IMG/VR virus record: IMGVR_UViG_2698536437_000003 | Coordinates: 1 to 6,533 of that record | Strand: one strand, 5' to 3' | Origin: a virus | Lineage: Duplodnaviria; Heunggongvirae; Uroviricota; Caudoviricetes | DNA length: 6,533 nt | In this document: positions 1 through 6,533 of the stretch, piece after piece | How the letters are laid out: every line of letters starts with the position of its first letter | Position numbering within the stretch: the first letter of the stretch is position 1 | Program-made: the position numbers and the translations under genes | The notes under the pieces: model-generated | What the model saw: only the letters and a program-made list of their open reading frames with translations | What the model was told of the DNA's origin: nothing | The model's database searches: none

Positions 1-81
1 CGCCAATGTTAGACTGAAATTGACGCCTGATGTTGATTATTAATAATCAGCTATGAAGTTTTAATTTGAATACAATGCAAT

Positions 82-270
82 TCACGAGGACTGAAGTTTC
101 TCGCAATTAAAATTTATCAGTTTTACTTTCTGCTCTCTGGAAACGCCTGCTTCTTTTTTACCTGAGAGCATTTTTTCGCATTCTGATTTCGTTAGTTTAG
201 ATTTTGAATATCTTGTCCAGTTAGTAGGAGTGCCACCTTCCTTTTCAATTGTAGCGGTAATTTTATACAT
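82..270 (-). CDS. small hypothetical prophage protein (62 aa), in the position ydaC occupies downstream of ralR in Rac-type prophages
   Basis: ORF-track ORF 82..342 (86 aa) contains an internal ATG at 268-270 preceded by GGAGG with a 5-nt spacer. That ATG overlaps the ralR stop (ATGTATAA) at 263-265. The first 24 codons of the 86-aa ORF overlap ralR in another frame, so the shorter start is preferred. Product not recognised; placement is by synteny only. Confidence 0.5.
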   Translation of the reverse strand: MYKITATIEKEGGTPTNWTRYSKSKLTKSECEKMLSGKKEAGVSREQKVKLINFNCEKLQSS

Positions 271-469
271 GAACGCCTCCATTAATATTTTCAGTGGTTC
301 GTTTATCCCATCTTTCGAGCGCTTCTTTTTCACTTCCACCATAGCCAGTTCGGGATTCGCATCCGTTGCATTTTGCCCGGTAATATCATGAAATGTCTTT
401 CACCGTTACTGATGGACAACCACAAAACGGACATGGTTTAACATCGTCATATCTCAAAGTTTTTGTCAT
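263..469 (-). pseudogene. ralR: ralR/lar restriction-alleviation protein (Lar family zinc ribbon), interrupted by an in-frame TGA at 386-388
   Basis: Minus-strand translation from ATG 467-469 gives MTKTLRYDDVKPCPFCGCPSVTVKDIS-stop-YYRAKCNGCESRTGYGGSEKEALERWDKRTTENINGGVHV-stop (TAA 263-265). The two Cys pairs (CPFCGC ... CNGC) are in one frame on either side of the TGA. This matches my memory of the 64-aa K-12 RalR, which has Gly where the TGA sits. A TTG at 455-457 corresponds to the K-12 start position. Too short to appear in the ORF track. Confidence 0.6.
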
Positions 470-513
470 AAAAACTATCTCACGTTGGCGGTGCATTACA
501 CCGCCTGGCTGAA

Positions 514-1318
514 TTATTCTTCTGAATTATCGATTACACTGTATTCCCCGGTTAATACAGAGGAGTCTGCCGGATCGATTGTCAGTGGTTCCTTTTCATC
601 CATTGATACTGCACGCTGGATTTCAATTGAGACAGGCAGGTATTTAAACAGGCGACGAATAGCCGTTTTTTTTGCCATTTCTTCCCAGTGAGTTACCCAC
701 GGCCCGTTATTACCTGCCTTACTCTGGCTGCGCACCAGTTCAATCTGTTTGCGCGTCATAACTTCAAACTGAGTCCCTCCGTCTTTCAGTCTTGCGACAG
801 CATAGACGTGGGTAAGCATCTTCGTTTTCTCCCGGGCGGTGTATTAACTTTTCATCAAGGCCAAATTCGAAGCTAAACTCGTCACCTTCACGGACAACAC
901 GGGCTGACAGGCTGGCGATTTGACCAGAACGGCGAGCCAGATCAATCATGCCGCGATAGCCAATGATTAGCTGAACGTTCTTTTTACCGCTCTTTTCGTT
1001 TTTATTACCAAAAGGCAGTAAATATGCGTGGCCAAGGGCGCTACCTGGCTCAAGGCCGAGCTGTGAACACTGTACGATTGCACTGACAAAACTCATAGTG
1101 TCACAGTTTCCTAACGCTGGAACGTTACGAATTTCTGTGGTGGCGATACGGATCATACGTTCAGCCGTCATATGGCGTGGAAGAGCTGCTGCCAGTTGCT
1201 CTTTCATTGATGGCTGGTTAATAAAACTAATCACGTCGTTATTTTTAACTGCTGCTGGTGCACGGTTTCCCTGAGTTTTTTGCAGATCGGCTTTTGCGAT
1301 TGGTGGTTGCTTAGTCAT
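514..1318 (-). pseudogene. recT: recT (RecT-family single-strand annealing recombinase) disrupted by a frameshift near 814
   Basis: Two same-strand ORFs in different frames: 764..1375 (real start [13 protein letters not shown]... at ATG 1316-1318) and 514..819 (..THVYAVARLKDGGTQFEVMTRKQIELV..SVIDNSEE). Together they cover about 269 codons, the intact RecT length. The upstream frame runs into ...GENEDA and then nonsense (YPRLCCRKTERRRDSV) to a stop at 764. Only 1 nt (814) separates the last conserved codon of one frame from the first of the other, consistent with roughly a 5-bp deletion. Confidence 0.8.
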
Positions 1319-3983
1319 TTGCATATTCCTTAGCCCAGCGGGGCAGTGATAACGTCTTAATAGCTGGCCATTCATCGGTATTGAGGCAGTCAGCCAGGGT
1401 CCTCAGATTGCGGTGATATTCCTGCTGGCCTGCCAGTTTTGCTTCTTCGCCCATCATGAAAATCTCAACCGGATAACGTCCGCATTCAACAGTTGTGCTG
1501 GCAACCAGAAAAACGAAAGTTGGCAGCACACCAAACTGTGCTTCATAACCGTCACTGTAGAATGCATCCTGAACGTGATAGCGGTAGTCGTAATAAGCCG
1601 TTTTGAATCGTTGAATATCCGCTGTGGTTTTCACGTCCATGATCCAGTGAAATTCAGGAATAATTTTGTCCGGACGGCACCGACACAAAATTCCTGTTTC
1701 CGGATCTTCCCAGTAAATTGATGATTCAGCGTGTCCGGCGCTTTCCACAAGCCATTGACCCAGCGGCAAAGCCATAACGCTCTGATACATGAGTTCAATT
1801 TTCCGGCCTTCTTCGGCAGTGATAACCGTTTTTCCTGTGCTTGCGCATTCCATCAGAAACGCTTTCTCTTCTTCTTTTCCGGCGTTTGTACGGCGGTTAA
1901 ATTCAGGTGCTACGATAAAGCGGTTACTGAATTCTTCCGGTTCAAGTACACGGCAGTGGAAAGCGGTTCCTAAATCGAGCGTTTTTGTCTTTGTGGTGTC
2001 CACAGGGGCATTTTTACGCCACAAATACAGCGCCGGAGTATCAGTAATGTCGTCGAGCTGAGACTTACTGACACCGGGACCCGCGTGGTAATTCTCATTC
2101 GAAATTCCGTAATAAATACCAGGCTCTATGTCTCCTGCGATTACGGGATCTGCGACTTCGCCAGTTTCATCACTGCAATCGCGATGCAGATCGCTGCCAG
2201 CATTCTCATTGTGCGGATGTTCAGGGCCTTCCATTTCCTCCGGCTCTTTTTCCTGAGATTCATCCAGATTTTCTTCATTAAAGGTTTCCTGATACGTTGC
2301 GTCGCCCATCACCGCACCACAGTCAGGGCAGTTATCCCCGCCAGTCTGACCGCAGGCATTGCAGACTATTTCCGGTTTCTGTTGCACTACTGGTTCAGGT
2401 TGTTTCACATCCGGGCTGGTTTTTACAGTTTCTGGCGTGTTTTGTTCCGTTTCTGGCTGGTTCTGGTACACAGAGTCGCGAGTCTGGATCCCCTTTACCC
2501 ATTTCGGATCGTTCGGGTCGCTAATCCCTTCAACGAACTCACCACGCGAAGCAGCCAGTAATTTGTCTGCATCGACAGGATTTTTGGGCGGAATGTTTTT
2601 CCGTGTTTCATGGAGTTCTGCCCGCAGTTTCTGATATTTTTCATCAACAGAATTTACCTGTGACTGAGCATCCAGCGGCTGCGTGTCCTGATGATGTTCA
2701 GTTGCATCCGGTTCCACTGTTTCAGCCGTTGCCTGTTCATCTGCCATTGCGCAATATGGTTGCGGTTTTTCTTCATCATCCTGTTTTTCTTCTTCTGTTA
2801 CACGCTGCGGCATCGGGGCAGAGGAACGACCGCAGGCAATATCCACGATTTCCGGATCAGGGTTGGCATGATCAGTTTCAGTCAGTACTTTGTTCAGATA
2901 TTCAGTGACGTGCGCGGGGATGACCTCGATCCCAATTGGTGCTTCTTTCACGGACGCAACCACGATGGCGCGGGAATAATCCAGCCCGCCAGGCATGGTG
3001 ATGAATTTGTCGCGGAAAACAGAAAAGGGCGGTTTATTTTCAGCGATAATTTCCTCAATGCGTTTAGCGTGTGCCGGATGAAGGTTATAGATGTCCACGT
3101 CCATTGAACGGGCCAGAATGCCAGTGGCTACGTCGCGGGCCAGCGACGCCTGATCATGAACGAAACCTTCGCCGCGATCGGTAAGGTTCCCGCCGCCTGC
3201 ATTAGCACCGGAATCTGTGCGAGTGATGCGTGAAACACGATTCCCTTTTCGCCATTCTTTTGTTAGAAGACCGCGATCAATGTGTTCGGTGTCCAGCCAG
3301 GCTGAAATGAAATTCTTAAATTCATAGGGCTGATGTTTTTTCGTGATAGAGAAAACTGCCTTAATTGCATCAGTCAGGCGGAGCAGGGCGGCATTATCCA
3401 GAGTTGTCGGTTCTGCCATGCCGCGTATGGCCAACAGCAGATTCTGGACATAGCTGTTTTCCTGATCCATCTCAAGAGCGGTAATGTGTTCGCGTTGTTT
3501 ACGGGTGGCATGATGCAGGTATTTCCGATCCCCGGCCGCATACGTAAAAATGTGCAGAAGACGCTGTGTGAACCGCAAAGTGGCTACAGAGACTTCGCAA
3601 TCCTGGCAATCCCCGTGGGCGTCTGCCTGCGCGTTTTCTTCCAGGCCTCCCGCCAGTTCTTTGGTTTCCTGAGCATTATCCTGGTGGTGAACGTCGTCTG
3701 GTGCTGCTCCCGGTTTTAGTTCCCAGGTCATGGAGTCTTTGCTGAGTTGATAGCGTTCACTCCAGGTAAAATCGATCTCACCTTCAGGGGGCAGGTCATT
3801 AACGACAGGAAAATTCGTGGCAACAGCTTTAAAATAGTTGCTCAGTTTTTTACCTGACTTAACGATCAGGTAGTCCAGAGTGGCACAGGTTGATTCAAAA
3901 TCGTCGCTTGCCCACAGGACGACGTCAGGCTCACCGGATGATTTTTTCGCTTTCCGTAAAAGGAAGAGTGGTTTTGTGCTCAT
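1311..3983 (-). CDS. recE: exodeoxyribonuclease VIII (RecE), 890 aa, apparently intact
   Basis: Continuous 890-codon ORF. The C-terminal third (..[24 protein letters not shown].. EDPETG.. IMDVKT ..) matches the RecE nuclease domain with a PD-(D/E)XK-like D..E/D..D-x-K arrangement. The central region is acidic/low-complexity with a CNAC-x7-CPDC motif. The stop TAA (1311-1313) overlaps the recT start ATG (1316-1318) as ATGACTAA. Confidence 0.9.
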
Positions 3984-4054
3984 TGTTTTTTAACCTCAAC
4001 TCAGATTAAAATTCGTTTTGTTCAGTGAATGATCTTGCCGGATACACACTGTTC

Positions 4055-4079
4055 ATAGCCTGCGCCATACGCAGGCTAT
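4055..4079. other. perfect 10-bp inverted repeat (ATAGCCTGCG-ccata-CGCAGGCTAT) in the racC-recE intergenic region
   Basis: Arms 4055-4064 and 4070-4079 are exact reverse complements with a 5-nt loop. It lies 6 nt downstream of the racC stop and about 70 nt upstream of the recE start. On the plus strand it is followed by TTCTTTC; on the minus (mRNA) strand no U-tract follows. Confidence 0.4.
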
Positions 4080-4084
4080 TTCTT

Positions 4085-4360
4085 TCAGATTTCACCGTTT
4101 AATTTCATTGCAATCAGAGTTGCCAGAAATCCGGCTTTTTTTTCTGCGGGCAGATTCTTTCCGATGTGAACCAGGCACATTTTTGTGACACCTTCATCAA
4201 GTGTTTTTACGTTGCCTGATGGACCATCGATATCAACCACAGTGAATGGGGTTTCTTTATTTTTTGTTTTAATTACGTAGCCAATGCGCTTTCCTTCCAG
4301 ATTCACCTCGTGAACAATGTCATCGGTAGTTACAACAGTGGTTTCATAATTGGTAATCAT
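4085..4360 (-). CDS. racC: RacC-like small prophage protein (91 aa)
   Basis: ORF-track ORF 4085..4408. The internal ATG at 4358-4360 is preceded by GGAGA with a 5-nt spacer and gives MITNYETTVVTTDD..., 91 aa. Size and position immediately upstream of recE match K-12 racC. Identification is by synteny and size, not verified by alignment. Confidence 0.7.
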   Translation of the reverse strand: MITNYETTVVTTDDIVHEVNLEGKRIGYVIKTKNKETPFTVVDIDGPSGNVKTLDEGVTKMCLVHIGKNLPAEKKAGFLATLIAMKLNGEI

Positions 4361-4434
4361 GTTTTTCTCCTGAATTAAGGTTGAGCGAATCCCTGCCATT
4401 TCTGGCATAAATTCAGTTTCGAATAGTCAATTAA

Positions 4435-4611
4435 TTAAAGTTCGTGTGCCATCTGGTCTTTTTCGGCACAAGCTTCACTGCAATATTTTCTCGGTTCGTC
4501 TTTTGATAAAGTCCCGTGCATGAAGTGAAGCATTCTTTCTATAGTTTTGCTTTCTTCAACGTCTTTTTTGCAAAGGTGGTAAGCACATTTTATTTTCTTA
4601 GTCGTCACCAT
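4435..4611 (-). CDS. ydaE: YdaE-like small Cys-containing (putative zinc-binding) protein, 58 aa
   Basis: Hand translation of the minus strand: [58 protein letters not shown], stop TAA 4435-4437. Cys at C-x4-C and C-x3-C. Too short for the ORF track. The start ATG 4609-4611 overlaps the kilR stop (4605-4607). Sits between kilR and racC as ydaE does in Rac. Confidence 0.6.
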
Positions 4612-4826
4612 GACTCCGCCTTTACAGGTAAACCATCACGACCGAGGAAGACTTTAATCATGCAGTCAGTAATGCATGTTTTTGTAGTTAGGCTACGAAT
4701 ATAAAGTTTTCGCTTTTTAATATTGTTTGCCGAGGCAATATATGTCCGGCCTTCATGAAGAACATAATCGCCAGGAGTCACGCACTGGCGTGGTATTTCA
4801 TCGGTTCCGAAGTGATGAGCAATCAT
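4605..4826 (-). CDS. kilR: KilR-like cell-division inhibitor, 73 aa
   Basis: 73-aa ORF ([14 protein letters not shown]...). ATG 4824-4826 is preceded by AGGAG with a 7-nt spacer. Size and position upstream of ydaE/racC/recE match K-12 kilR. Function is taken from K-12, not shown here. Confidence 0.7.
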
Positions 4827-4872
4827 AATTATCTCCTTAATAAATTTGTCGTATTAAGAAAATTCCAGAAAA

Positions 4873-5721
4873 CTATTTAATACTCAGCAACTGCTCGACG
4901 GTCATGTTTTTAATTGCGCTTCGGTTTACAAGAGTCCAGCCCTGTTTCTCCAGATAAAGGCGGAAAGTGTCTAGGGTACAGACGAGAGCGTCATCAGGAA
5001 CGGTTTCAGTGAATTCGACGTTGCCGAATTTGTCGAAGCGAACAACCAGAGTGCGCCCATCGCCCGGAATGATTTTGTTTGTGGGAGTGGTATTATTCTG
5101 GCGTAGTTCTGCTTCCATGCGGTCGAACTCAGCGATGTAGGCCTCTTTGAATGCAGCGGCTTTTTTGCCAGTGAAGCCCATCACCAGGAAAACGAAGCCG
5201 TTTTTGGTGATCTGGTAGGCATTATAGGAATTGCCGCGATGTTCGAATTTAACCCGCGAAAAGTTGCTGGTTAAAAAATATTCAGAGCATTCGAGGGATT
5301 CTATTTTTTGGACAACATGATGATGTTGCTTGCCAAAAAACTCTGCGATCGCAATGGATGTAGTTACAGCGCGACCGTTTTCGATGGTTACGTCAGGGTG
5401 AGAAAGGGTAGGGATAGTAGTCATAATGACAGCCTCGATAGTCAGTTTAAATAACTCACCACCAAGGTTTTCCACGACCATAAGGGTGGTGAGACGTACA
5501 GGGGTGGAAATACCGGCGACTACCGAAACCGGCCAGCTTTGCGGCTGCCCTGCACGCCCCACCATAATCTGAATGTGGCTGTGCATTACGCATAAAAAAA
5601 CCGCCTGAGCGCGGTTATGCGCGGTAATCATCATCGGGTTTCCACGCCCGGCACCCGTTTTATAAGGTGCAGGTGCACTATAATTCCACCCGTTCTGGTT
5701 TTCAATAGCTACATTCAACAT
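4873..5721 (-). CDS. Rha-family phage regulatory protein; the full 282-codon ORF is given but the real start may be the internal ATG at 5422-5424 (183 aa)
   Basis: Residues about 100-200 (MTTIPTLSHPDVTIENGRAVTTSIAIAEFFGKQHHHVVQKIESL...NFSRVKFEHRGNSYNAYQITKNGFVFLVMGFTGKKAAAFKEAYIAEFDRME) fit the Rha (Phage_pRha) domain pattern, which is normally N-terminal. ATG 5721 has an AGGTGA SD with a 6-nt spacer; ATG 5424 has GAGG with an 8-nt spacer. The upstream 99 codons have no recognisable domain and contain a terminator-like hairpin. Confidence 0.6.
   Translation of the reverse strand: MLNVAIENQNGWNYSAPAPYKTGAGRGNPMMITAHNRAQAVFLCVMHSHIQIMVGRAGQPQSWPVSVVAGISTPVRLTTLMVVENLGGELFKLTIEAVIMTTIPTLSHPDVTIENGRAVTTSIAIAEFFGKQHHHVVQKIESLECSEYFLTSNFSRVKFEHRGNSYNAYQITKNGFVFLVMGFTGKKAAAFKEAYIAEFDRMEAELRQNNTTPTNKIIPGDGRTLVVRFDKFGNVEFTETVPDDALVCTLDTFRLYLEKQGWTLVNRSAIKNMTVEQLLSIK
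5594..5616 (-). terminator. weak terminator-like hairpin (AACCGC-GCUCAG-GCGGUU followed by U5-7), inside the 5' extension of the Rha ORF
   Basis: Plus strand 5594-5616 is AAAAAAACCGCCTGAGCGCGGTT. On the minus transcript this is a 6-bp stem (4 GC pairs), a 6-nt loop, then a U-run. The stem is short, so this may be chance. Confidence 0.25.
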
Positions 5722-5904
5722 TTTCTCTCACCTTTCATCACCGAAGTGAACTTTGTTGATGCGGTGCCTGGTGCCTCCAGGTGACGTTAACCAGTTAACA
5801 ATTAACGCCGGATATTTCACCCATAACTCTGCTACGAAGGACAATAGCTTTTTAACTGTTCCGCGTGCGCTTAGCCGCATTCACCGCATCACAAAATTCA
5901 CTTT

Positions 5905-5951
5905 AAAAAGGGCGGACATCAGTCGAACTTCAAGAAAAAACTGATGCCGCC
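5905..5951 (-). terminator. candidate rho-independent terminator on the minus strand: 12-bp stem with one bulge, followed by CUUUUU
   Basis: Arms 5911-5923 (GGCGGACATCAGT) and 5940-5951 (ACTGATGCCGCC) are reverse complements apart from one bulged A, with a 16-nt loop. On the minus transcript the stem is followed by CUUUUUAAAG (plus 5901-5910). Confidence 0.45.
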
Positions 5952-6105
5952 AAGACTACACACAGCAGTGTTGTTATTCACAACCGGAGGCGCACTCCCA
6001 CCATTTAAATTTGACAGACAAGACCGACTCTTTATGGATACCGGAAATGCGCCTTCGTGTTATGCCCGGTTTTATTTCACCACCTCCGGGCTTTGGTGGC
6101 CTCGG

Positions 6106-6210
6106 CTATACCAAGCTTTTGGTATACGTCATGGCGGTGAACGTTCCATCCTGGTTGGGGAACACGCCACACACTAGGGATTCGTTGTTGCCGAGGTCGA
6201 TTTTTTGCAT
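6106..6210 (-). CDS. small hypothetical ORF (34 aa), in the position of ydaF in Rac; possibly truncated
   Basis: Hand translation: MQKIDLGNNESLVCGVFPNQDGTFTAMTYTKSLV, stop TAG 6106-6108. ATG 6208-6210 lies 10 nt after the stop of the upstream ydaG-like ORF, with no clear SD. Not verified by homology. Confidence 0.3.
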   Translation of the reverse strand: MQKIDLGNNESLVCGVFPNQDGTFTAMTYTKSLV

Positions 6211-6220
6211 TTTGCGAATC

Positions 6221-6355
6221 TCACATCTTGTTGCTGCATATAGCGGCTTCTGCCTGCCAGAGATCCCAGTCGTTGCTGCGTAGAGCCTGTACAGCTTGGC
6301 TGTAAGTGATACCGCAACAATCCATCAAATACTGAACTACTTCGTAATGCACCAT
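6221..6355 (-). CDS. small prophage protein (44 aa), ydaG-like by size and position
   Basis: Hand translation: MVHYEVVQYLMDCCGITYSQAVQALRSNDWDLWQAEAAICSNKM, stop TGA 6221-6223. ATG 6353-6355 is preceded by AGGGAGAG about 7 nt upstream. The 44-aa length matches my memory of K-12 YdaG; sequence identity not verified. Confidence 0.5.
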   Translation of the reverse strand: MVHYEVVQYLMDCCGITYSQAVQALRSNDWDLWQAEAAICSNKM

Positions 6356-6399
6356 TTTATCTCTCCCTTTAACGCCGGGTGGCGGAACTAAAACCTACA

Positions 6400-6533
6400 G
6401 CGCCGTGCTGCTTCTGTAATAATATTAGTTATGTTCATATTAATGATCAACACAAATATGCATTTCGTTGATAAAAATGTACTATCCTAATGAAATTTTT
6501 AGTGTTTTTTTGATAAAAAGTAAGGCGGGGGCG
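6400..6533. promoter_or_regulatory. AT-rich intergenic region with an exact 10-bp direct repeat TTGATAAAAA (6468-6477 and 6510-6519); candidate promoter/operator region
   Basis: No ORF can enter from the right edge on the minus strand for more than about 30 codons (stops in all three frames by 6447-6489). TTGATA (6468-6473) resembles a -35 element, with TGAAAT 17 nt downstream (6491-6496) as a weak -10. No repressor gene is visible inside the window. Confidence 0.3.

Follow-up and report, generated by a model that had tools for sequence, protein, structure and literature searches.

The window analysed here is a 6,533-nt stretch of a Caudoviricetes virus record (IMGVR_UViG_2698536437_000003, positions 1 to 6,533). 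An ORF of 282 aa, 4873..5721(-), begins at ATG 5721-5719 and contains an in-frame internal ATG (5424-5422) exactly 99 codons downstream; the 99-codon in-frame 5' extension of the Rha ORF, described in a sequence-only reading of this DNA, is indeed present between the two. The Rha domain lies behind the internal Met, as that reading had placed it: residues 120-203 of the long ORF match Pfam PF09669 (Phage_pRha) with 91.6 bits against a cut-off of 29.9, an onset 20 residues past the internal Met, and the PHROGs families assigned to the product of 4873..5424(-) are Rha-like and anti-repressor. In a comparison of Rha homologues, a check suggested by the same reading, those that are free of the RNA cassette described below begin at the internal Met (5424). 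This start has the form GAGG-N8-ATG, with the SD GAGG at 5436-5433(-); among 41 related sequences, four of its 11 SD/ATG columns are invariant (T240, A247, T248, G249) and seven are conserved in at least 90% (G235, A236, G237, G238, G241, C243, A244). The upstream start at 5721 had been credited with the better SD, but a crude anti-SD duplex gives -4.6 kcal/mol there versus -5.9 kcal/mol for the GAGG before 5424. The extension is slightly GC-rich, as had been stated (50.8% vs 46.6%). The locus lies between dicF and kilR, and the host element resembles a defective Rac/Qin-type lambdoid prophage in which recT is apparently split into two ORFs. The features of the region are collected in Table 1.

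Table 1. Features at and upstream of the Rha-family gene (window positions).
Feature	Position	Strand	Basis and remarks
Rha-family regulator/antirepressor gene	4873..5424	-	183 aa from ATG 5424; Pfam, PHROGs
a2 target GACTATCG and SD	5433..5443	-	a2 (5443-5436) shares one base with the SD GAGG (5436-5433)
Candidate alternative hairpin, b2 in loop	5455..5493	-	CTCACCACC (5493-5485) pairs with GGTGGTGAG (5463-5455)
b2 target GTGGAAA	5469..5475	-	51 nt before the Rha ATG
C4/CI-type antisense RNA	5482..5569	-	Rfam RF01695, 73.1 bits vs gathering 45, model positions 1-87 of 87
b' TTTCCAC	5504..5510	-	single-stranded C4 segment
a' CGGTAGTC	5518..5525	-	loop of C4 hairpin 2
ATG at +106 of the inferred transcript	5563..5565	-	in frame with Rha, 47 codons upstream; without SD
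IsrK-like small RNA	5594..5670	-	Rfam RF01394, 62.7 bits vs gathering 50, model positions 1-77 of 77
IsrK intrinsic terminator	5594..5616	-	stem 5616-5599, T run 5600-5594; terminator scan
a1 GATTACCG	5622..5629	-	IsrK linker; complementary to a'
b1 GTGGAAA	5639..5645	-	loop of IsrK hairpin 2; complementary to b'
Sigma-70-like candidate promoter TTGAAA-17-TATAGT	5677..5705	-	10 of 12 consensus matches; putative function
ATG of the annotated 282-aa ORF	5719..5721	-	equivalent of the P4 eta start; PGAP start in an identical E. coli record
In-frame TGA closing an upstream 50-aa ORF (5880-5728, dicB 5' remnant)	5728..5730	-	6 nt before ATG 5721

A promoter scan of the region found 3 sites where 3.1 are expected by chance; the -35/-10-like hexamers of the candidate promoter occupy the same position in three unrelated upstream contexts and in P4 (TATAGT), and the -10 element ends 6 nt upstream of where the IsrK match begins. 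The inferred transcript start, 5670/5669, coincides with recombination breakpoints. The IsrK-like RNA is 77 nt long and is composed of two 5' hairpins, a linker, and an intrinsic terminator. The hairpin with a U-run that had been noticed on the coding strand is this IsrK terminator: AACCGCGCTCAGGCGGTT (5616-5599) leads into a T7 run (5600-5594), and a terminator scan detects it. In two related loci (L007 and L056) and in P4, the terminator stem sequences differ yet still form a stem. The short direct repeat GCGCGGT(T/A)A is found in the letters (TACCGCGC at 5626-5619 and AACCGCGC at 5616-5609) but does not hold as a feature, because its first copy overlaps the hypervariable, unconserved a1 site, which makes the repeat a coincidence of this specificity type. 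The isrK and C4 Rfam models are also matched as a pair in 14 of 14 related loci, in P4, and in Gifsy-1, and E. coli EDL933 likewise has isrK and C4 within genes.

The C4-type RNA comprises 88 nt with a 17-bp outer stem that encloses two inner hairpins; hairpin 2 presents a' in its loop and is followed by a single-stranded stretch with b'. Its minimum free energy is -45.2 kcal/mol (z = -4.98). Across the related sequences, pairing in the outer stem reaches 99.6%, and 8 of its 17 pairs have changed on both sides, as have four of the five pairs of hairpin 1; for the local structure as a whole, pairing is 94.5%, with two-sided changes in 17 pairs, values that were reached by none of 500 shuffles. 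One C-A mismatch in an inner hairpin is unique to the window. C4 RNA is a stable RNA cut from a longer transcript, by RNase P in P1/P4, and the invariant CCACC at the 3' end of the C4 stem is compatible with processing into a stable RNA. An alternative hairpin with b2 in its loop may form between the 3' strand of the C4 outer stem (5493-5485) and 5463-5455: its arms are nearly invariant in A1, and a compensating pair, CTATCGCC/GGCGATAG, occurs in P4. The hairpin folded by 5481-5416 alone (z = -5.27) was not counted as conserved, because the variable a2 pairs there with invariant sequence.

The pairing sites connect these RNAs with the Rha start. In the comparison, b1:b' is paired in 99.7% of cells, with both sides changed in 6 of 7 pairs; a1:a' is 94.5% paired, with 7 of 8 pairs co-varying; and a':a2 is 83% paired. 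All 41 sequences have a 7/7 complementary b2 site between 45 and 51 nt upstream of the ATG, 38 having it at -50 or -51, and an 8/8 a2 site ending 9-11 nt before the ATG is present in 38 of 41. The best a2 site is 7/8 in L006, L015 and L016; for L009, the automatic pick is 6/8, but the a2 of this locus (TCACCATG) overlaps the start codon. Nine b types and 17 a types occur in the 41 related loci. The a':a2 duplex has 12 bp and an energy of -14.3 kcal/mol and extends into the SD, and the mean energy of the a'+b' duplexes is -24.8 kcal/mol for cognate versus -15.6 kcal/mol for non-cognate combinations. Covariation of this kind shows that a and b, each present in three copies, evolve in concert as RNA pairing partners, and all pairing sites in the window are intact and cognate. 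The stretch 5705-5425(-) is very probably an antisense-RNA control cassette of the P4/P1/Gifsy-1 type for the Rha gene, set within a frame that is kept open, with a mechanism that is ascribed to it by homology. The Rha-family gene would be the regulated cargo of this cassette.

It had been proposed that the extension, which was said to have no recognisable domain, might be either a novel N-terminal domain or a structured 5' leader. A match does exist at both levels: residues 14-109 match the Pfam profile PF10554 (Phage_ASH) end to end with 66.8 bits against a cut-off of 26, and the extension DNA also matches the Rfam isrK and C4 models. This Pfam match would favour a real folded "Ash" domain in residues 1-99 that modulates the Rha regulator, with the RNA matches being secondary, and so would the conservation of the frame across many phages and the literature on Stx phages, which lists Rha/Ash proteins with Ash as a domain of unknown function. 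Such a protein domain is nevertheless very improbable. The coding-potential comparison proposed earlier gives a strong third-position excess for Rha, with 67/45/125 variable columns at codon positions 1/2/3 among 179, but no codon-position signal for the extension, where the corresponding counts are 10/9/8, 13/12/11 and 8/11/12. Protein-level purifying selection in the form of a third-position excess and conservative replacements was not found for the Ash region in this comparison. Instead of being conserved at the protein level, the 99-residue N-terminus shifts radically in amino acids where the RNA pairing partners co-vary, and blocks such as GRGNP/GIATP/GISTP change in step with their RNA partners elsewhere. 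In addition, the Pfam Ash profile maps on the promoter-to-kil interval of P4, the immunity product of which has been described as an RNA. Homologues of the extension are confined to Enterobacteriaceae and resemble it at the nucleotide level; as a protein query, the 99 residues retrieved 51 "ash family protein" fragments, most of them partial and all from E. coli, Shigella or Salmonella, and a contig scan with the same residues gave 7 loci. AlphaFold2, run on the 282-aa ORF with a 30-sequence alignment, returned a mean pLDDT of 38.9, and the values of 31-37 for residues 1-99 are weak evidence because the Rha domain itself reached only 50-54. Annotations in RefSeq and the literature carry Ash and Rha-Ash proteins of Stx phages, whereas here the "domain" coincides with the RNA cassette from transcript start to Rha start; P4 epsilon, which one paper equated with Ash, falls in a different family (PF25738). 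A separate upstream protein domain in the 383-aa ORFs of the ST64B type was considered and rejected, the only Pfam matches there being Ash and Rha. To judge from these comparisons, the Pfam "Ash" match is the translation of the RNA cassette, as in phage P4, and of the two original options it is the structured 5' leader that fits, consisting of an IsrK-like sRNA, a C4/CI antisense RNA, and their target sites.

The frame was also suspected of simply happening to be open. Frame 0 is, however, stop-free in 44 of 47 unique sequences, while the other frames carry 2-11 stops in nearly all of them, and in the hypervariable segments the roughly 480 codons of frame 0 contain no stop, against 74 stops in frames 1 and 2 together. 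The length classes among related loci, 246, 243 or 240 nt, differ by multiples of three. That the extension is a decaying, functionless remnant open by chance is hardly conceivable: the defective look of the prophage with its apparently split recT and the C-A mismatch found only in the window would agree with decay, but every pairing site is intact and cognate, both RNA models are matched over their full length, and the identical sequence and close variants are widespread and bear the marks of compensatory evolution. A narrower reading holds that translation is needed only from ATG 5565 to the Rha ATG, for coupling as in Gifsy-1, and that 5721-5566 is open because it is short, GC-rich and highly conserved, with ATG 5721 never being used. 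It can draw on the experiments of Hershko-Shalev et al. (2016, PMC4825925), in which Gifsy-1 orf45 is translated from +107 and is required for anrP translation, and on the invariance of ATG 5565 in 41 of 41 sequences; this codon is the counterpart of the orf45 start and of the point where the old P4 "cI protein" CDS begins. The 45-aa ORF 5593-5456 in another frame was rejected as an orf45 homologue, because Gifsy-1 orf45 begins at the equivalent of ATG 5565. The same reading gains from frameshifts inside the cassette in L024 and L079 (IsrK T-run) and L080 (b'), which break the annotated long ORF there, and from a stop at codon -88 in L004. It is still distinctly unlikely, since ATG 5565 is without SD and is buried in the C4 outer stem, the IsrK part is also free of stops in frame 0 across 18 different a1 variants but not in frames 1 and 2, and in P4, eta is read in the same frame from a start that precedes the promoter. 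Open frames of 182-220 codons in ST64B, WGPS2, cdtI, an Stx1 phage and Citrobacter also speak against it, and the annotated phage records of the first three have a CDS that overlaps the preceding gene by 4 nt. The position of TGA 5728..5730 is a sense codon in several related loci, where the frame extends 134-141 codons. In the distant P1-like loci L009, L015 and L016, the frame is closed, from which it follows that the function of the cassette does not need translation through it. On balance, the extension frame is kept open by evolution, as in the nested eta/kil genes of P4; its conservation could also reflect a separate function of the long protein isoform.

If the stretch is an antisense-RNA control cassette, transcripts from the internal promoter would mostly end at the IsrK terminator and yield a small RNA, and read-through transcripts would be cut to the stable C4 RNA. 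Pairing of its a'/b' with a2/b2 would block Rha translation and probably promote premature termination, a repression that would keep the antirepressor-like protein off in the lysogen. By binding C4 competitively, in cis or in trans, the a1/b1 sites of the IsrK-like RNA may switch expression on. Translation of internal-promoter transcripts would begin at ATG 5565 or at ATG 5424, the two characterised relatives differing in this respect. ATG 5721 is located upstream of the internal promoter and is thus carried only by transcripts begun further upstream; the long ORF starting there would be the counterpart of P4 eta, translatable only from such transcripts, here those of the dicF/dicB early operon. 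Ribosomes crossing the cassette would open up its RNA structures and avert termination, and the transcript would become insensitive to the RNA repressor, which would explain an open frame with an unconstrained amino-acid sequence.

In RefSeq and Pfam, this stretch is annotated as belonging to a 282-aa "Rha family" or "ash family" protein. As the evidence indicates that the conserved signal is an RNA switch, the regulated product is likely the 183-aa Rha protein, and Ash-domain matches may mark P4-type RNA immunity cassettes. The locus is also a clear example of letters constrained at the RNA level in which the coding level constrains only the absence of stop codons. The gene that the cassette would control is antirepressor-like and occurs in E. 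coli prophages, Stx phages among them, which gives the switch a bearing on prophage induction and cross-talk. Co-resident cassettes with different a/b codes, two per contig or chromosome, occur in L060 and in the chromosomes of L010-L013, and the large number of reassorted specificity types suggests that selection favours insulating prophages of one host from each other. A bolder and unlikely proposal is that the same ~250 nt serve two uses, as three RNA pairing elements with a freely reassorted code (at least nine b and 17 a types) and, in translation, as the N-terminal arm of a long Rha isoform whose synthesis requires an active upstream DicA-controlled dicF/dicB operon, with a network of co-resident prophages and isoforms of different activity. 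If it is true, co-resident prophages with different codes would form mutually insulated or cross-talking antirepressor switches, and the long and short Rha isoforms would differ in activity, as Ant1 and Ant2 of P1 may.

The elements of the cassette are known from three systems. The immI region of P1/P7 (c4, icd, ant1/ant2) shares with the window a C4-family RNA bearing a'/b', with a1/b1 targets before it and a2/b2 targets after it at a ribosome-binding site involved in antirepressor control, and also the occurrence of different specificity types among related phages. The IsrK-like RNA of the window corresponds to the a1/b1 element of P1 and to the seqA leader of P4. In P1, a2/b2 form the target at the RBS of the small icd ORF, and ant transcription depends on icd being translated. 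Between C4 and Rha, the ORF list of the window shows no separate small ORF of the icd type, and the target there is the Rha SD itself. The distant Yersinia phage locus L009, unlike the window, has a 63-aa ORF and a 380-aa ORF6N/Rha protein. In Salmonella, Gifsy-1 isrK-orf45-anrP-isrJ has the same arrangement as the window, with matches to the isrK, c4-a1b1 and C4 models, three copies of the a and b sites, and an a2 that adjoins the SD of the antirepressor gene. Experiments on Gifsy-1 have shown the promoter, read-through of the terminator, an RNA processed to about 80 nt, and an activating effect of IsrK on anrP translation (Hershko-Shalev et al. 2016, PMC4825925), and the putative promoter of the window corresponds to PisrK and to P4 PLE. 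The two loci differ in that orf45 is separate, out of frame, and ends with ATGA on the anrP start, whereas its equivalent in the window is fused in frame; in that AnrP has ORF6N rather than Rha, the C-terminal 75 residues being weakly alike (22% identity, E = 0.014); and in that Gifsy-1 adjoins antQ, whereas the window locus has dicF and kilR as neighbours. The isrJ gene of Gifsy-1 was not found downstream of Rha in an Rfam search of the window.

The closest parallel in layout is P4, from which the arrangement of an RNA cassette inside an open frame is already known. P4 has a Rho-dependent terminator, timm, and an upstream late promoter, and kil is reportedly the first gene translated. P4 and the window sequences have the same order of promoter, seqA-like sites, CI RNA, seqC-like sites, and short-ORF start. 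The -10 element TATAGT precedes the IsrK-like leader by 6 nt in both and the spacing of the elements matches, with b1/a1 upstream, a C4-model RNA with a'/b', and b2/a2 beside GGAGG-N8-ATG; P4 kil and Rha even start in the same GGAGGCTGCCATCATGGCTAC context. The P4 ORF 8812-8168 begins upstream of an internal promoter in frame with a short ORF, as in the window, where ATG 5721 is upstream of the -35 element and ATG 5424 is in frame with it, the eta/kil type of nesting; both long ORFs match Pfam Ash in the same frame. According to the account of the eta/kil/CI/seqA mechanism in PMC10111431, RNA-dependent premature (Rho-dependent) termination is relieved in P4 by translation of the long ORF. The differences concern about 35 extra codons in P4 between the leader and CI, the host element, a satellite in P4 and a lambdoid Rac/Qin-like prophage in the window, and the cargo, which is the 65-aa Kil followed by epsilon and replication genes in P4 and a 183-aa Rha-domain protein in the window.

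The 99 codons on the minus strand between the annotated start of the Rha ORF and its internal ATG (5721-5425) belong to a known family of RNA cassettes, with an IsrK-like RNA followed by a C4 (CI-type) antisense RNA, both full-length Rfam matches, and by target sites near the Rha start. On present sequence evidence, the extension is best read as a P4/Gifsy-1/P1-type antisense-RNA switch over a Rha-family (antirepressor-like) gene, embedded in an eta-like ORF whose frame is kept open and whose amino-acid sequence is unconstrained.

Features of the Rha ORF and its 5' extension
Feature	Position	Strand	Basis
Rha ORF	4873..5721	-	282 aa
Rha domain	residues 120-203 of the 282-aa ORF		Pfam
PF10554 'Ash protein family'	residues 14-109 of the 282-aa ORF		Pfam, 66.8 bits
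Putative sigma-70-like promoter, TTGAAA-17-TATAGT	5705-5677	-	ends 6 nt 5' of the isrK match
isrK	5670-5594	- (coding strand)	Rfam, full-length, 62.7 bits (gathering score 50)
c4-a1b1	overlaps the 5' half of isrK		weak Rfam match
C4 antisense RNA	5569-5482	- (coding strand)	Rfam, full-length, 73.1 bits (gathering score 45)

Because of the position of the putative promoter, the annotated ATG 5721 lies upstream of it. The hairpin and U-run noticed at 5616-5594 were recovered by a terminator scan and are the IsrK terminator; the short direct repeat described beside them is present but is not kept in the alignment of 41 distinct cassettes. The C4 fold agrees with the family model (-45.2 kcal/mol, z = -4.98). 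Transcripts from the promoter would be processed to C4 RNA, which would repress at the Rha ribosome-binding site; IsrK would act as an anti-antisense RNA, and translation from ATG 5721 may have a part in the switch. The C4 inner hairpin 1 at 5534-5547(-) carries a C-A mismatch (CAGCC GCAA AGCTG) in the window only, the other aligned sequences (n = 41 in all) being paired there. In addition, the 3' arm of the outer C4 stem, CTCACCACC (5485-5493(-)), can alternatively pair with the downstream GGTGGTGAG (5455-5463(-)), which would place the downstream b2 target in a loop; a compensating pair, CTATCGCC/GGCGATAG, is found in P4 (8432-8390), and this pairing is possibly the alternative conformation considered for Gifsy-1.

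Related loci were gathered (n = 96), and almost every close Rha homologue among them has the RNA region upstream. In the 41-sequence alignment, the local structure is 94.5% paired, with 17 pairs altered on both sides, and the observed values were reached by 0 of 500 shuffles. The C4 pairing sites a' and b' co-evolve with their partners: b1 in the IsrK hairpin-2 loop is 99.7% paired with b' (6/7 pairs co-vary), and a1 in the IsrK linker is 94.5% paired with a' in the C4 hairpin-2 loop (7/8 pairs co-vary). Downstream, a' and a2 are 83% paired by columns; in 38/41 sequences an a2 site complementary at 8/8 positions ends 9-11 nt 5' of the Rha ATG, and all 41 have a fully complementary (7/7) b2 site 45-51 nt 5' of the ATG, at -50 or -51 in 38. 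The a':a2 duplex of the window extends into the Rha Shine–Dalgarno GAGG; the GAGG-N8-ATG columns are kept in at least 90% of the 41 sequences, with the ATG invariant. Nine b and 17 a specificity types occur in 22 combinations, and the mean a'+b' duplex energy is -24.8 kcal/mol for cognate against -15.6 for non-cognate partners. The terminator and C4 stems of two loci (L007, L056) and of P4 are built from other sequences with pairing retained. The a and b sites reassort independently of each other. Two cassettes occur on one contig or chromosome in L060 (1255-1503, 2785-3030), L010/L011 and L012/L013; the co-resident pairs differ in b type and one pair also in a type, which suggests heteroimmune, mutually insulated switches.

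The structured 5' leader entertained in the sequence-only reading is thus supported by the Rfam matches and the co-varying pairing sites, and its two other accounts, a genuine novel N-terminal domain and a stretch that happens to be open, can be weighed by codon position and by frame. The Rha gene shows the classical third-position excess (67/45/125 variable columns at positions 1/2/3, of 179), and none is found in the IsrK (10/9/8), C4 (13/12/11) and b2-a2 (8/11/12) segments of the extension. Radical change in the translated blocks GRGNP, GIATP, GISTP and GICTP tracks their RNA partners; therefore, the amino-acid sequence of the extension is not under protein-type selection, which speaks against a novel domain. 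The open-frame test points the other way, and both tests matter. From the putative transcript start to the Rha ATG, frame 0 has no stops in 44/47 unique sequences, and the other two frames have 2-11 stops for nearly all of the 47; cassette lengths are 246, 243 or 240 nt, and the hypervariable segments hold 0 stops in ~480 codons of frame 0 versus 74 in frames 1+2. A frame that is open by chance does not fit these counts, and the reading frame through the cassette is kept open. Four phages and one Citrobacter chromosome, five distant loci in all, have it open for 182-220 codons, and in the annotated phage records ST64B, WGPS2 and cdtI the CDS and the gene before it share 4 nt. The exceptions (L024, L079, L080) are single-base frameshifts in homopolymer runs; in three distant P1-like loci the frame is closed, and a separate gene follows the cassette.

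As for the starts, an internal in-frame ATG does lie at 5424-5422, 99 codons 3' of the annotated start, and this Met is where Rha homologues that lack the cassette begin, as the suggested comparison of homologues reveals. The better Shine–Dalgarno sequence claimed for 5721 was not upheld (anti-SD duplex -4.6 kcal/mol, versus -5.9 at 5424), and the third candidate, ATG 5565, has no anti-SD duplex. RefSeq, on an identical E. coli chromosome segment, names all 282 aa a Rha family protein.

On one side of the cassette and Rha lie a DicF-like RNA and a 5' remnant of dicB, on the other kilR, in a Rac/Qin-type prophage. Against a locus without the cassette, homology breaks off at 5744 and returns at 4597; in other loci, shared homology begins exactly at 5670/5669, the putative transcript start. 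The dicB remnant is in the long-ORF frame with one TGA (5730-5728) between, a sense codon in several relatives. The DicF-like match (5910-5964(-)) falls just short of its gathering score (42.8 bits versus 48). Upstream of the cassette, a partial STnc100 match (5752-5898(-), 40.6 bits versus 47) overlaps a 50-aa ORF (5880-5728) that holds the dicB remnant, itself in the frame of the long Rha ORF. In a Stx2c phage (L008, cassette 1501-1746), the frame is open 202 codons upstream, and a different downstream protein is joined to the cassette after ~10 shared N-terminal residues; the cassette therefore moves between cargo genes, and this junction lies just inside the coding start. Two Rha homologues without the isrK/C4 cassette (L049, L057) have an sRNA-Xcc1 match (RF02221, 67.4 bits, gathering score 53) at 1367-1456, ~45 nt 5' of their ATG at 1501 and in the same place as the cassette, which is possibly another type of RNA element controlling the same kind of gene. 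Elsewhere in the window, a full-length RalA antitoxin sRNA match (86-264(+), 218 bits) opposite ORF 82-342(-) forms with it the type I toxin-antitoxin pair RalR/RalA known from Rac-like prophages; a recT-like gene (514-1375(-)) appears split into two overlapping ORFs (764-1375, 514-819), suggesting a frameshift, and the recE-like ORF 1311-3983 (890 aa) is intact.

The layout of phage P4 is that of the window cassette: the -10 TATAGT lies 6 nt 5' of the isrK-model match (8692-8615), the upstream sites are b1 GTGAGAA and a1 TTCACAGG, the C4-model match (8507-8420) holds a' CCTGTGAA and b' TTCTCAC, and b2 and a2 adjoin GGAGGCTGCCATCATGGCTAC. By published accounts, this C4-model match corresponds to the CI immunity RNA (PMC4825925, PMC10111431). 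P4 Kil (65 aa, from the ATG in the GGAGGCTGCCATCATGGCTAC context) begins MATTLTPSHPE and window Rha MTTIPTLSHPD, and the P4 Eta ORF (199 aa) starts 5' of the promoter in the frame of Kil. It has been summarized that CI is yielded by transcript processing, that read-through allows Kil to be translated, that full-length Eta requires transcripts from an upstream promoter and is translated in coupling with the gene before it, and that Eta translation prevents termination (PMC10111431). The extension had been described as lacking any recognisable domain, but Pfam places PF10554 across it; the same profile covers P4 Eta residues 21-145 as a whole profile and hits the obsolete CDS 'cI gene product' of P4 at precisely the C4-model match, and thus the 'Ash domain' is a frame-specific translation of the RNA cassette. 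The main value of the analysis is this corrected reading of the 'Ash domain' in Rha proteins. In P4 (L097, NC_001609, 8168-8812), the full length of the profile spans the interval between the start of the PLE transcript and that of kil, overlapping the matches to Rfam C4 (CI RNA) and isrK; in RefSeq the record retains the CDS as 'cI gene product (AA 1-137)', and P4 epsilon, equated with Ash in one paper, belongs to another family, PF25738.

Gifsy-1 isrK-orf45-anrP is the second characterised relative, with the isrK, c4-a1b1 and C4 models and the a/b triplets positioned as in the window. Experiments on Gifsy-1 demonstrated the promoter; they also showed that the terminator is partly read through, that an RNA of ~80 nt arises by processing and that IsrK activates translation of the antirepressor (PMC4825925). 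Unlike in the window, orf45 and anrP are read in different frames, and AnrP carries an ORF6N domain instead of a Rha domain. The system is of the known P4/Gifsy-1/P1 kind, to which the window cassette adds one more member.
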